Positions 12,451 through 40,485 of a DNA stretch of 64,000 nucleotides are shown in pieces. Position 1 is the stretch's first letter; each line of letters starts with the position of its first letter. A program made the translations under genes and the position numbers. Origin of the DNA: a virus (Duplodnaviria > Caudoviricetes); the IMG/VR virus record IMGVR_UViG_3300005336_000019, positions 12,513-76,512 of that record. One strand, 5' to 3'. The notes below the pieces were generated by a model. The model did no database searches, had not been told where the DNA came from, and worked only from the letters and a program-made list of their open reading frames with translations.

Positions 12451-12885
12451 ATGGAGTTCCACGAGCGCTTCGCCGAGAAGGCTGCCGACACCGACTACTC
12501 CCGCTACCCCCAGCTCCAGGCGCTGAGCAAGTACGACATCAACGCGACGGCCGAGGCTCTGCGCCTGACCGCGATCCAGCTCGGCACCCACGTGCGCGGG
12601 TGGGGCATGCTGGACGACCTGACGCTCGACGAGCCGACGGTCATCACGGCCCTGCTGGCGCTGAAGCGGCGCTGGGACGACGAGGGGCACCTGGTCTCGG
12701 TCGACTTCGAGGAGTACTGGGACGCCACCGACACCCACAACTTCCCCTCCTCCCTGCTGGAGGAGATGAAGCGCCACCTCGTCCGCCAGTTCCTGGAGGG
12801 CAAGAAGGCCGAGCACGTCGCGGTCAGCAACCCGTACGGGATCTGGCTGTTCGACAAGGCCGTCCTGGAGGGGATCTTCAAGTGA
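12451..12885 (+). CDS. hypothetical protein
   Basis: High GC3, RBS. Confidence 0.85.
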   Translation: MEFHERFAEKAADTDYSRYPQLQALSKYDINATAEALRLTAIQLGTHVRGWGMLDDLTLDEPTVITALLALKRRWDDEGHLVSVDFEEYWDATDTHNFPSSLLEEMKRHLVRQFLEGKKAEHVAVSNPYGIWLFDKAVLEGIFK

Positions 12886-37642: not shown

Positions 37643-37786
37643 TTTTCCTTTTCCTCTCCGATACGAGAATGCGGGGGTCGCCTACTACGACCGCAGGGGA
37701 TCTTTCACCAGGAGAGCTGCCACGCAGATCACTGGAGTTGGCCTCACCCTGCCCAAGCGGAGTAAGGATTTCCGCAGGCACCGCCG

Positions 37787-37859
37787 TGCTCCTGGCAGGA
37801 ATTGAACCTGCGACATCCGGATCCGGAATCCGGCGCTCTATCCCCTGAGCTACAGGAGC
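37787..37859 (-). tRNA. tRNA-Arg(CCG)
   Basis: Cloverleaf; CCGGA-TTCCGGA-TCCGG; GGTTCAA T-loop; no encoded CCA. Confidence 0.95.
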
Positions 37860-37868
37860 TTTCCTCTC

Positions 37869-38264
37869 TCACCAGATGTCGTACAGCATCCGGCGAGGAA
37901 CCTTCTCGGCCTTCTCGTACAGCCGACGTTCGAGTTCGCCCTTCGTGCGGCGCCCGGCTTCCAGCTTGCTCTTCACGTAGCGCCGGTTGGCGCGCTCGTG
38001 CTTACCAGCCCAGTAGGTCCGGCTGGAACTGGGGGTCCAGGCCCCGGTGTAGGTCCACCAGCGAGCGGTACGCCTCACCTTCCGGGGCTGCGGCCTGCGG
38101 CCCTGCCTCTCGGCGTCACGGAGTTCCGCAGCGCTGTAGCGCAGGTCGTAGACCTCGTGCTCGCGCACCGGAGTGATCGGCCGCTTGCGCCAGTACATCC
38201 TGTAGCCGTCAGGCCAGTCGCGCTGGTCGAACTTTCCGGGCGTGTGATGCGTCGTCTTGCCCAT
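37869..38264 (-). CDS. very basic (Arg/Trp-rich) hypothetical protein inside tRNA array
   Basis: RBS AGGAGG, ATG; MGKTTHH...HERANRR...LYDIW. Confidence 0.8.
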   Translation of the reverse strand: MGKTTHHTPGKFDQRDWPDGYRMYWRKRPITPVREHEVYDLRYSAAELRDAERQGRRPQPRKVRRTARWWTYTGAWTPSSSRTYWAGKHERANRRYVKSKLEAGRRTKGELERRLYEKAEKVPRRMLYDIW

Positions 38265-38365
38265 CGGAATTCATCCTCCTAGGGCCGCGAATTTCGCGGA
38301 CCTAGGTGAATCCGGTGACGATGTCCATCACCCCTCCAAGCTGTTCAGGCACGGTTGTTCCCAAG

Positions 38366-38463
38366 TGCGCGAGGCAGGGATCGAACCTGCACTGGACGTC
38401 TCCACAGGGCCTTTCCGAGTGCCCTGTTCGCCGGGCTCTGACTCGGAGTTCCCTTACACGCGC
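38366..38463 (-). ncRNA. tRNA-like RNA with non-canonical D region and 10-nt anticodon-position loop (possible pseudoknot)
   Basis: Acceptor GCGCGTG/CTCGCGC-A, T arm GCAGG-TTCGATC-CCTGC, variable arm, ACAGGGC-ACTCGGAAAG-GCCCTGT; TCCGAGT in D region complementary to ACTCGGA. Confidence 0.75.
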
Positions 38464-38554
38464 GACCGCACTGCGCAATGCGGTCCTTTACCACCGACTG
38501 TAATTCCGACCGGGTTTTTCAGACCACGGAAGGATATGGTGTCGTCGGCACACG

Positions 38555-38627
38555 CTCTCCTGACTGGACTTGAACCAGTAACATCCGGATTAACAATCCG
38601 GCGCTCTGCCGGTTGAGCTACAGGAGA
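38555..38627 (-). tRNA. tRNA-Asn(GTT)
   Basis: CCGGA-TTGTTAA-TCCGG; cloverleaf. Confidence 0.95.
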
Positions 38628-38762
38628 TCGAATCTGAAATTGTAGTGGGCCTCATCCCTAGCACCACGCGGCGCACCGACCTTGTTCTGCTGCGCTTCTC
38701 AACTGTTCCGGTTGTCGGGCGGATGGCAACCGGACCGCACTCCTATCTCCGCCACGTGCACG

Positions 38763-38834
38763 CTCCCCCGTCTGGACTTGAACCAAAACTTCCGATTCCA
38801 GAGACCGGCGGTCTGCCAATTAACCTACGGGGGA
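38763..38834 (-). tRNA. tRNA-Gln(CTG)
   Basis: CCGGT-CTCTGGA-ATCGG; U1-A72. Confidence 0.92.
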
Positions 38835-38853
38835 TCGCTCTTGAATTGTTGGC

Positions 38854-38945
38854 AACCGGACGGCAATGCTTCCACGCATGGACTATCTTCGCATGTATGT
38901 CCCACCCGCCACAGTGGGGCTGCGTTGATAGCTTACCGTCCGGCC
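38854..38945 (-). ncRNA. putative structured RNA (multi-branch) between tRNA-Phe and tRNA-Gln
   Basis: 13-bp closing stem GGCCGGACGGTAA/TTGCCGTCCGGTT plus four internal helices. Confidence 0.55.
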
Positions 38946-38947
38946 AG

Positions 38948-39023
38948 TGGCCCCGGCCCGATTTGAACGGGCGACCTCTCGCTTTTCAGGCGAGCGCTCT
39001 TTCGCGAACTGAGCTACAGGGCC
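38948..39023 (-). tRNA. tRNA-Phe(GAA)
   Basis: CTCGC-CTGAAAA-GCGAG. Confidence 0.93.
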
Positions 39024-39174
39024 TTGCACCCCTTGATGTATAGCTGGGCAGGGGCCGCCCTCCACTCGCCTCCCGGAGAAGGTTGGCTCATGGACTCGCT
39101 TTGCCTCACTCTCTGCCCGGTGGATAGTGGCCTTGTGAGCCACGAACTCCACCGGAATCTGCCTCCGAAGCCAG

Positions 39175-39248
39175 CGGTCCCGACGGGATTTGAACCCGCG
39201 ACCTCTCGGATGACAACCGAGTGCTCTGCCGAACTGAGCCACGAGACC
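39175..39248 (-). tRNA. tRNA-Asp(GTC)
   Basis: CTCGG-TTGTCAT-CCGAG; G73. Confidence 0.95.
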
Positions 39249-39273
39249 ATTGCTTCTTACCGCTGTTGAGTTG

Positions 39274-39320
39274 AAAAGGGAGCCCCGCTTTCCCGGCCTC
39301 CGCCTTACGGCGGGGCTCCC
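39274..39320 (-). terminator. intrinsic terminator within tRNA array
   Basis: GGGAGCCCCGC...GCGGGGCTCCC-TTTT on minus. Confidence 0.65.
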
Positions 39321-39343
39321 GATAGACCCGTCAGGGGGTCTCG

Positions 39344-39417
39344 TGGAGATGGAGGGATTCGAACCCCCGTCCTTCCGATCCGTAGTCGGCTGCCCCATCC
39401 AACTGGGCCACACCTCC
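39344..39417 (-). tRNA. tRNA-Arg(ACG)
   Basis: GCCGA-CTACGGA-TCGGA; GGTTCGAATCC. Confidence 0.93.
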
Positions 39418-39507
39418 ATCAGCCTTTCACCCTTCGCGCCAAGCGTGACCAAGGCAGGATCCAGGCCGACCGCATCCAAGCCCCAGGAAGCCGTGAGGAT
39501 GCGGCAG

Positions 39508-39580
39508 TACGCCCTACTGGACTTGAACCAGTGACACGAGGATTAAGAATCCCCTGCTCTGCCAACTGAGCTAAGGGCGC
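39508..39580 (-). tRNA. tRNA-Lys(CTT)
   Basis: GGGGA-TTCTTAA-TCCTC. Confidence 0.95.
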
Positions 39581-39587
39581 GCGTTCT

Positions 39588-39710
39588 TCAGTTCTGTCTG
39601 TCGTCCTTGGGGCCCCAGTAGTGGCCCGTGTAGACGTGGACGGGGTATCCGTCCTTCTGCACCTTCTTCAGGTGCCCTTCGTACGTCCGAGCCTTGCACT
39701 TACAGCTCAC
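39588..39710 (-). CDS. 40-aa basic peptide within tRNA array
   Basis: RBS AGAAGG, GTG; MSCKCKARTYEGHLKKVQKDGYP... Confidence 0.55.
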   Translation of the reverse strand: MSCKCKARTYEGHLKKVQKDGYPVHVYTGHYWGPKDDRQN

Positions 39711-39829
39711 GATCGCACCTTCTTTCTTGTCCCGATTCCAACAGGAACCCCTGGTTTCCCGGGACAGCGTTCCACCAGGGGTCTGCCTAGCGTCCGGCCG
39801 GTTCTGTCCTCCCGATCCTTCTGCTGGCA

Positions 39830-39860
39830 TACGGCTTACGGATTATGAGTCCGCGCCGCA
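39830..39860 (-). ncRNA. free-standing CAU anticodon stem-loop
   Basis: TGCGGC-GCGGA-CTCATAA-TCCGT-AA-GCCGTA; no D or T arm. Confidence 0.55.
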
Positions 39861-39866
39861 CCTTCG

Positions 39867-39940
39867 TATCCCTGACTGGACTTGAACCAGTGGCCTTTCC
39901 CTTATGAGGGGAGTGCTCTGACCGACTGAGCTACAGGGAT
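39867..39940 (-). tRNA. tRNA with CAT anticodon (Met or Ile2)
   Basis: CTCCC-CTCATAA-GGGAA; A1-U72 paired, so not a typical initiator. Confidence 0.9.
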
Positions 39941-39945
39941 CTGCG

Positions 39946-40018
39946 AGCCCCCGACCGGAATTGAACCGATGGCATCCGACTTACGAAGACGGCGCTCTAC
40001 CGACTGAGCTACGGAGGC
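39946..40018 (-). tRNA. tRNA-Thr(CGT)
   Basis: CCGTC-TTCGTAA-GTCGG (one U-U mismatch). Confidence 0.92.
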
Positions 40019-40020
40019 AT

Positions 40021-40095
40021 GAACTCCGGGTCCTAGGAGGGACGCAGACTTGCATGGGATAGCGAGCTGAGAAACAACGCTAGGCCCCGGAGTTC
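40021..40095 (-). ncRNA. long-stem RNA A
   Basis: GAACTCCGGG-G-CCTAG...CTAGG-A-CCCGGAGTTC. Confidence 0.55.
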
Positions 40096-40218
40096 TGTCG
40101 GGAGAATCCTGCCCGATCTTTAATCGACCACCCGCTGGATCGATGGACAGGTTCCTCCCTTTGCGAGACACCAACCTCGCGATTCCCAGGCTGTAGACCT
40201 GGCGGCAGCGGGAACTGC

Positions 40219-40284
40219 GGACTCCGGGCGGAGTGGACGACGTCGTAAGGGAAAGAGGTACTTCCGATACGCCGCCCGGAGTCC
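40219..40284 (-). ncRNA. long-stem RNA B (related to A)
   Basis: GGACTCCGGGCGG...CCGCCCGGAGTCC. Confidence 0.55.
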
Positions 40285-40286
40285 AG

Positions 40287-40361
40287 TCGGAATGGCGGGA
40301 TTTGAACCCGCGACCTCTCGCTCCCGAAGCGAGTGCTCTACGCAAGCTGAGCCACATTCCG
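40287..40361 (-). tRNA. tRNA-Pro(CGG)
   Basis: CTCGC-TTCGGGA-GCGAG; C1-G72. Confidence 0.95.
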
Positions 40362-40410
40362 ATTGAAGGTTCCCCAGGGTGACGGGGGGGTTGTAACCCC
40401 GGGGAACCAG

Positions 40411-40485
40411 CAGGGATAGCAGGATTTGAACCTACGACACGCCGCTTTGGAGACGGCTGCTCTGGCCGAACTGAGCTATATCCCT
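40411..40485 (-). tRNA. tRNA-Trp(CCA)
   Basis: GCCGT-CTCCAAA-GCGGC; G73. Confidence 0.95.

Follow-up and report, generated by a model that had tools for sequence, protein, structure and literature searches.

A conserved four-hairpin RNA in the tRNA operon of large Streptomyces phages carries a look-alike of the host tRNA-Ile2(CAU) anticodon arm

What is an anticodon arm doing a few bases past the end of a complete tRNA gene, with no tRNA around it? This question is raised by a locus in the tRNA array of a virus of the Caudoviricetes, of which a stretch of 64,000 nucleotides (positions 12,513 to 76,512 of the IMG/VR record IMGVR_UViG_3300005336_000019; hereafter the window) was analysed. The original prediction, made from the letters of the DNA, had described a canonical arm with a 5-bp stem and a 7-nt loop located 6 nt past a CAT tRNA, stacked on an extra 6-bp helix, devoid of D, T and acceptor arms, and different in its stem from the phage CAT tRNA. 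The locus agrees with this description in every detail of position and folding. The 3' end of the tRNA(CAT), as placed by the Rfam tRNA model, lies at 39867 and is followed by the six bases CGAAGG and then by hairpin 1 (Table 1), in which an outer helix of six pairs, or seven counting a terminal G-U, with an AA bulge on its 3' side, supports an arm with the stem GCGGA/UCCGU, whose top pair is G-U, and the loop CUCAUAA. The anticodon stem of the phage tRNA(CAT), in contrast, is CUCCC/GGGAA. ARAGORN called no tRNA at hairpin 1, the Rfam tRNA model (RF00005) gave no match at the element up to E=10, whether run on the region or on an isolated 156-nt stretch, and the set of acceptor, D, anticodon and T arms that makes up a cloverleaf is not present in it. 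Folded on its own, the 33-nt hairpin 1 reaches -14.9 kcal/mol (z -3.01, with 2 of 200 shuffles as stable), and within a context of 56 nt the z-score is -1.37, with 20 of 200 shuffles as stable. The folding energy is thus a weak sign by itself, and it is the sequence that singles the site out: with up to three mismatches allowed, the 17-mer of the arm has one match in the window compared to 0.09 expected.

Table 1 Features of the element and of its immediate neighbours, in window coordinates and ordered along the minus strand.
Feature	Position	Strand	Basis or remark
Phage tRNA(CAT), directly upstream of the element	39867-39940	(-)	closest to T4 tRNA-Ile(CAU)
Whole conserved non-coding element, 138 nt, four adjoining hairpins	39729-39866	(-)	11 homologues aligned
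Hairpin 1: outer helix, AA bulge and anticodon-arm look-alike	39829-39861	(-)	folding and pairing in 11 sequences
17-mer GCGGA-CUCAUAA-UCCGU	39838-39854 (loop 39843-39849)	(-)	same sequence as the anticodon arm of Streptomyces tRNA-Ile2(CAU)
Hairpin 2, variable, compensatory changes in the stem	39785-39828	(-)	GGACAG in apical loop (39804-39809)
Hairpin 3, nearly invariant, 10-bp stem, symmetric purine-rich internal loop	39746-39783	(-)	apical loop CUGUCC (39762-39767)
Hairpin 4, CCUG / 7 nt / CGGG	39731-39745	(-)	loop variable among relatives
40-aa micro-ORF, GTG start, strong RBS, outside the RNA element	39588-39710	(-)	corresponds to Kela gene 196

A likeness of the arm to actinobacterial tRNA-Ile2(CAU), together with the suggestion to compare the 17-mer with host tRNAs, formed part of the original prediction, and both turned out to be well founded, with 17 of 17 bases identical. 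In a scan that covered a single genome for each prokaryote species and returned at least 120 loci, the 17-mer lies inside a tRNA(cat) called by ARAGORN at 116 of the 120 loci listed, and three of the other four loci end at contig ends. Position 3 of those 116 listed tRNAs is G in 101 and A in three cases (G3/A3 in 104/116); a passage of Silva et al. (2006, PMC1635315) gives G3/A3 or C70/T70 as the feature that sets tRNA-Ile(CAT) apart from both Met tRNAs. In five Streptomyces genomes, the 25 CAT tRNAs typed by ARAGORN comprise three main kinds, next to three further CAT-pattern matches that were left untyped: the initiator, which begins with CGCGGGG and has the GGG/CCC stem; the elongator Met tRNA, which begins with AGCGGTG and has C3-G70 and the arm AGCGG/TCGCT; and a third kind, which begins with GGGGCGG, has G3-C70 and carries exactly the arm of the phage 17-mer. 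According to the G3-C70 rule, the third kind is of the tRNA-Ile(CAT) type. The 15-nt core of the 17-mer was present in all 101 Streptomyces genomes sampled, mostly in one copy each.

The likeness extends beyond the arm. When the whole element was compared by BLAST to 61 Streptomyces genomes, one recurrent match was obtained, namely to the tRNA-Ile2 gene, over element positions 13-36 and with 22 of 24 bases identical; hairpins 2-4 gave only scattered and inconsistent short matches in these genomes (best E 0.007-0.013). In our own numbering, the match corresponds to tRNA positions 27 to about 50, so that GCCGU, the 3' strand of the outer helix, represents the end of the former variable loop plus the start of the T-stem. 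The 5' strand of this helix is new sequence, which now pairs with the former variable-loop and T-stem bases. Judged by this identity, hairpin 1 is by descent a piece of a tRNA-Ile2(CAU) gene that has been kept as a structure, and its 5' flank has evolved to pair with it, with the result that a complete anticodon stem-loop now sits atop a coaxial helix.

The arm had been called free-standing, and in this respect the description has to be corrected, since hairpin 1 is the first of four adjoining hairpins of a conserved, structured non-coding RNA of 138 nt, located on the tRNA strand within the tRNA operon of Streptomyces phages of about 185 kb. A BLAST search of phages yielded six related records, Kela, JustBecause, Quantum, Satis, Kradal and EhyElimayoE, all of them Streptomyces phages of 184-187 kb, which we take to be actinophage cluster BK. 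The recorded host is S. lividans for Satis, Quantum and JustBecause, and S. scabiei for Kela. Motif scans of viral and metagenome contigs brought the collection, after removal of duplicates, to 11 distinct full-length sequences and one partial sequence. A looser motif for hairpin 3 gave four extra loci; these are chance matches without tRNAs or the remaining element and look protein-coding by their sequence. The 11 sequences are of the same length and adopt the same architecture when folded singly, and the RNAalifold consensus agrees with it. A covariance model built for the element (R1) found the element once, and only once, in each of five genomes (E <=2e-31), all other matches having E >=0.08, and one strong match per genome in these five genomes means no paralogues with other anticodons. 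Searches of 3.3 kb and of 156 nt with an E limit of 10 assigned the element to no Rfam family. A scan of the array for other free anticodon-like hairpins with a 5-bp stem and a 7-nt loop returned only hairpin 4 and one hairpin overlapping the 5' end of tRNA-Thr. Hairpin 4 may be a vestigial T-arm: its loop, TTGGAAT, agrees in five of seven positions with the host TTCGAGT in three sequences, but it varies in the others.

Hairpin 1 is retained in all 11 distinct sequences. The arm of the window, and with it the tRNA-Ile2 arm as a sequence module, is found in eight of them (GCGGA/UCCGU), and the others deviate: the stem is ACGGA/UCCGU in L137, UCGGC/GCCGA in the Satis group, and UCGGU/ACCGA with the loop CUCAGAA in L011. 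The outer helix occurs as GCGGC/GCCGU, GCAGC/GCUGU and GCACG/CGUGU. Pair counts were taken from an alignment fitted to the covariance model and are therefore biased toward the structure; subject to this bias, all cells of the 12 pairs of hairpin 1 are paired, five pairs having changed on both sides and seven being invariant, and for the whole structure 97.9% of the cells are paired compared to 91.0% in shuffles (0/500 reach it), pairing falls to 31-45% when partners are slid by 1-3 columns, and 11 pairs have changed on both sides where 3.9 are expected from shuffles (again 0/500). Several of the pairs are G-U, which would read A-C on the opposite strand, so the structure belongs to the minus-strand, tRNA-sense RNA. 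As the counterpart of its reading, the original prediction had named an unconserved remnant of a decaying tRNA duplicate in the relatives; they show the opposite, 11 distinct homologues keeping the arm with compensatory stem changes and pairing being preserved through double changes.

Constraint is unevenly spread over the element. The 7-nt loop of hairpin 1 is unchanged in 10 of 11 sequences and the bulge is variable in all four of its columns, but the constraint on the loop (one of seven columns variable vs 14 of 28) is not significant (p=0.098). Hairpin 2 is variable in 33 of 45 columns and keeps its pairing, with double changes in six pairs. Constraint is highest in hairpin 3, with four of 39 columns variable vs 57 of 102 elsewhere (p=3e-7). 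Its apical loop is complementary to that of hairpin 2, as read from the sequence, which suggests a kissing contact between the two loops; covariation support is lacking for this contact because hairpin 3 never varies. The element is covered by contigs from three RNA libraries of two studies, one contig of 156 nt being identical over 39752-39901, which is a weak hint of transcription, as such assemblies may include DNA and tell neither ends nor strand nor level.

The array around the element (37786-40485) comprises the 11 tRNA genes of the window, each encoded by the minus strand: Trp, Pro-CGG, Thr-CGU, CAT, Lys-CUU, Arg-ACG, Asp, Phe, Gln-CUG, Asn and Arg-CCG. They read G/C-ending codons that are common, not rare, in the phage's own GC-rich genes, and replacement of tRNAs fits this set better than codon compensation. 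The window has 66.8% G+C, and ATA accounts for 9 of the 15,245 codons in its likely genes. The tRNA(CAT) next to the element is identical to T4 tRNA-Ile in 58 of 75 positions, to the host elongator Met tRNA in 54 of 74 and to host tRNA-Ile2 in 44 of 74, and its anticodon arm equals that of T4 tRNA-Ile throughout; by sequence, it may be of the Ile2 type rather than a Met tRNA. The pair of tRNA-Thr(CGU) and tRNA(CAT) at 39867-40018 (-) shows 72.7% identity over about 142 nt to the tRNA-Thr/tRNA-Ile(CAU) pair of T4 and matches 416 phage records, including phages of Escherichia, Salmonella and Vibrio, cyanophages and others. The position of the arm beside this tRNA had suggested a tie between the two, which the relatives do not uphold. 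A tRNA(CAT) lies upstream of the element in the window, L004, L006, L007, L008, L137 and the Satis group, and tRNA-Thr is directly upstream in Kela, L005, L135 and L011; in JustBecause, no tRNA-Met is annotated under the match. The complete genome of Kela has no CAT tRNA among 12 tRNA matches above the cut-off and still keeps the element.

Some further features of the array and its surroundings were recorded. Long stable hairpins occur in its spacers at 39249-39342, 38835-38946 and 40019-40285 (-). A very basic ORF of 131 aa without family match lies at 37869-38264 (-) between tRNA-Asn and tRNA-Arg(CCG), and Satis gene 204 has the same length and likewise follows tRNA-Asn. The seven ORFs neighbouring the element were compared to Pfam and PHROGs, and only a peptidase, upstream of the array, was recognised. 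Outside the window, relatives carry a second mini-cluster (W01:88443-88938, W02:88423-88736, G106:139428-139942 and G107:4969-5482) with a tRNA-Ile(GAU) and an odd 85-nt tRNA-like gene, which ARAGORN gives as 'Pyl(cta)' or as undetermined; in this second mini-cluster, Satis, G106 and G107, not Kela, have a 118-nt match to the tRNA model. Satis gene 176, also outside the window and about 11 kb from the tRNA array, is annotated as a RelE-like toxin.

How might such an element act? The original prediction had suggested a decoy for anticodon nucleases (VapC/PrrC-like) or for TilS or synthetases. Our preferred reading, which we hold tentatively and rate somewhat below an even chance, is that it is an excised stable small RNA whose hairpin 1 competes for a host protein that reads CAU anticodon arms. 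We infer that the element would be transcribed together with the tRNAs, cut out by tRNA-processing enzymes and persist as a stable small RNA, and that hairpin 1 would then present its look-alike in competition with the CAU tRNAs of the host, to the benefit of the phage. Hairpin 3, perhaps kissing hairpin 2, may provide the fold or bind a second partner. The first candidate for the partner would be the host's short, two-domain TilS, the enzyme that converts C34 of tRNA-Ile2 into lysidine, and the second an anticodon-loop nuclease. One Streptomyces TilS has 342 aa and consists of the PP-loop and TilS substrate-binding domains only, without the third, acceptor-binding domain. In a section of PMC11947777, such short TilS are classified as type II and presumed to discriminate by the anticodon stem alone, and the way in which they tell tRNA-Ile2 from tRNA-Met is described as an open question. 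As to the nuclease, part of the text of PMC2241913 states that S. coelicolor cuts many tRNAs in the anticodon loop, with 5' halves of CAT tRNA making up 20% of the clones. No TilS of their own was found in any of five phage genomes.

Several of these observations would favour a competition for the arm: by sequence, the 17/17 identity with a G3-C70 tRNA whose core occurs in 101 of 101 Streptomyces genomes, its extension to 22 of 24 nt of the host gene, and a loop unchanged in 10 of 11 sequences next to a variable bulge; the short type of the host TilS and the retention of the element in Kela without a CAT tRNA; the conservation in 11 sequences, the paired hairpin 1, the G-U pairs in tRNA sense and the single copy per genome; and the anticodon-loop cleavage in the host, the missing phage TilS and the contigs from RNA libraries. 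Since ATA is nearly unused by the phage, any gain from touching the decoding of AUA must lie on the host side. The strongest version of this reading, which we consider rather unlikely, is that of a bait RNA, in which the excised 138 nt would confront the two-domain TilS, or else an anticodon-loop nuclease, with a perfect copy of the one part of tRNA-Ile2 that it reads. With TilS as the partner, host tRNA-Ile2 would stay unmodified, AUA codons would stall and the tRNA would be misread as Met, amounting to a codon-specific shut-off of AT-richer, horizontally acquired host genes such as those of defence islands, from which the AUA-poor phage would be spared. A nuclease, on the other hand, would be soaked up by the bait. 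With either partner, this would be the first RNA decoy described in a phage that consists of an anticodon arm only.

The competition for the arm is weakened by observations that at the same time make a structured spacer of the tRNA operon its main rival. Such a spacer would act in cis, either as a site for processing or by stabilising the tRNA precursors next to it, and the identity of the arm would merely be inherited; we regard this as a real possibility, if on the whole a doubtful one. The stem of the Satis group, whose phages have S. lividans and S. griseofuscus as hosts, occurs in none of the 101 Streptomyces genomes, so that its arm would be no faithful mimic if the partner reads the stem sequence; together with the CAG loop of L011, it shows drift away from the host sequence while pairing is kept. 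The conservation of the loop is not significant, and constraint is stronger in hairpin 3 than anywhere else, including the arm. Hairpins are also found in other spacers of the array: five of seven other segments fold better than shuffles, four of them at z -3.37, -2.68, -2.35 and -2.06, compared to -1.85 for the element as a whole, and several spacers are 70-80% conserved to Satis, much like the element with its 76.6%. Finally, no promoter or terminator was found between the element and the tRNAs; a simple scan of the element region gave no promoter, and a search of 39729-39866 for an intrinsic terminator (a GC-rich hairpin plus a T-run), which misses actinobacterial terminators lacking the T-run, gave none. 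What speaks against a mere spacer is hairpin 3, which is near-invariant including its loops, as a processing hairpin has no need to be. In addition, the 5-bp/7-nt geometry is kept in all 11 sequences, as is the loop apart from its variant in L011, and the place of the element is constant, with tRNA(CAT) or tRNA-Thr upstream and an ORF or tRNA-Lys downstream.

The ORF downstream leads to another, improbable explanation, according to which the element is the 5' leader of the micro-ORF and controls its translation or stability, for instance by pairing of the CAU loop with the GUGAG or AUGAG of the start. The micro-ORF (SCKCKARTYEGHLKKVQ...HVYTGHYWGPKDD) sits between the element and tRNA-Lys, follows the element in nine of the 11 distinct sequences (intact in seven, cut by the contig end in L004 and frame-broken in L135) with matching spacing in the rows displayed, and has no match in Pfam or PHROGs; as read from the sequence, the CUCAU of the loop is complementary to both start contexts. 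Yet the four phages of the Satis group keep the element without this ORF, with tRNA-Lys only about 10 nt downstream, and L011 has a different ORF in its place. Moreover, hairpin 1 is about 120 nt away from the RBS, every CAU loop is able to pair with every start codon, and covariation between the two is lacking. An operator-type mimic of a synthetase gene was rejected on similar grounds, the next RBS being about 120 nt away and the downstream ORF being absent from the Satis group; no synthetase gene occurs in 49 kb of Satis annotation, and the ORFs neighbouring the element have no family match.

A neutral, decaying pseudogene or duplicate of tRNA-Ile2 without present function agrees with the tRNA ancestry indicated by the 22/24 identity to the host gene, and with the modest divergence of relatives that all belong to one phage group. 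We nevertheless hold it for very improbable, given the excess of double changes over shuffles that keep the pairing, the same length and architecture in 11 sequences, the evolution of a new complementary 5' strand and the invariance of hairpin 3. Least probable of all is a site at the DNA level, be it an attP-like core for integration into tRNA-Ile2, which the occurrence of the 17-mer at att-like junctions of other viral contigs could recall, or a longer ORF of 80 codons from an ATG at 39830, whose frame is open in seven of 10 sequences, since the G-U pairs argue for RNA, no integrase or recombinase was found above the cut-off in five genomes, the identity to the host gene extends over no more than 24 nt, and the long frame lacks an RBS, is interrupted in L005, L135 and Quantum and starts with an ATG buried in the stem.

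For the integrase search, the five genomes included two IMG/VR records with an estimated completeness of 99-100% and two GenBank records titled complete genomes; the tyrosine integrase family PF00589 was found in none of the five, and the serine recombinase family PF00239 gave nothing above the cut-off. The identity to the host gene does not reach the 3' end of the tRNA, so that integration would break an apparently single-copy host tRNA. In the viral contigs L202, L237, L241, L284 and L294, the 17-mer ends the 5' half of a tRNA and is followed by unrelated DNA; these junctions look like att-type junctions produced by integration at the tRNA-Ile2 anticodon arm.

Returning to the preferred reading of an RNA that competes for an arm-reading protein, the element can be compared to several known systems. 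Genuine bacterial and phage tRNA-Ile2(CAU) genes share the 17-mer arm with it; in other viral contigs, the 17-mer is part of complete tRNA(cat) genes that often have tRNA-Arg(tct) and tRNA-Leu(taa) as neighbours. The element, by contrast, has a new pairing strand and three unrelated hairpins where such genes have their acceptor, D and T arms. Anticodon-arm mimics in messenger and viral RNAs are represented by the thrS operator of E. coli and by the tRNA-like element of HIV-1 that binds LysRS, both of which bind the enzyme that normally reads the imitated arm. As in the phage element, the hairpin is not part of a tRNA and reproduces the anticodon stem-loop of a single tRNA species. Unlike these two, the element is phage-encoded and part of a tRNA operon, overlaps neither an RBS nor a synthetase gene, has three more conserved hairpins attached and copies tRNA-Ile2(CAU), and its binding to a protein is only putative.

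By position, a parallel is found in T4, whose rnaC and rnaD (species 1 and 2; 139 and 119 nt) are annotated as stable RNAs and lie within the phage tRNA cluster, like the element. They are released by tRNA processing, and their function is, to our knowledge, still unknown. The predicted fold of rnaC contains a T-arm-like hairpin (GGGUUCGAAUCCCGG) closed by paired ends and resembles the upper half of a tRNA, whereas the phage element imitates the lower half, the anticodon arm. We rejected membership in this type: the location in a tRNA cluster is shared, but the R1 model gave no significant match when run on the T4 cluster, its best match (E 0.2) lying over tRNAs, homology is not apparent and the 3' end has no T-arm plus acceptor. 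The element may thus be said to resemble the thrS and HIV-1 mimics by its proposed function and rnaC/rnaD by its position, and is a member of neither group. In phage PhiTE, a non-coding RNA reportedly mimics the ToxI antitoxin and neutralises a host protein, which is said to be proven by genetics; as in the role proposed here, a phage non-coding RNA copies a host RNA, although RNA and target are different ones.

The same arena, in which phage tRNA clusters answer enzymes that act on the anticodon loop, is treated in PMC10264068, where the cases presented are complete decoding tRNAs with altered loops; neither 'decoy' nor 'sponge' appears as a word in that paper. The phage element has the arm alone, with an unaltered loop identical to that of the host, and would for this reason act as a bait and not as a replacement. 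Among the top-ranked papers on phage anticodon stem-loop mimics or decoys, anticodon nucleases and TilS, supplements aside, no element of this kind was described. If TilS or an anticodon nuclease were bound, the element would be a simple natural inhibitor RNA, and in the case of TilS it would offer a handle on how the short enzyme separates tRNA-Ile2 from tRNA-Met. It would also mean a codon-specific manipulation of the host in Streptomyces, where control by rare codons (bldA/UUA) is already a theme. Even as a mere processing module, the element would be a case of a tRNA fragment turned into a new RNA gene by exaptation. The tRNA clusters of phages have come to be seen as weapons in a contest over the tRNA pool of the host, and every case known to us involves either complete decoding tRNAs or RNA mimics of the upper half of a tRNA, acceptor plus T arm. 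The phage element is the complementary case, in which the decoding arm alone, identical to that of the host, has been grafted on a new scaffold that is maintained by selection.
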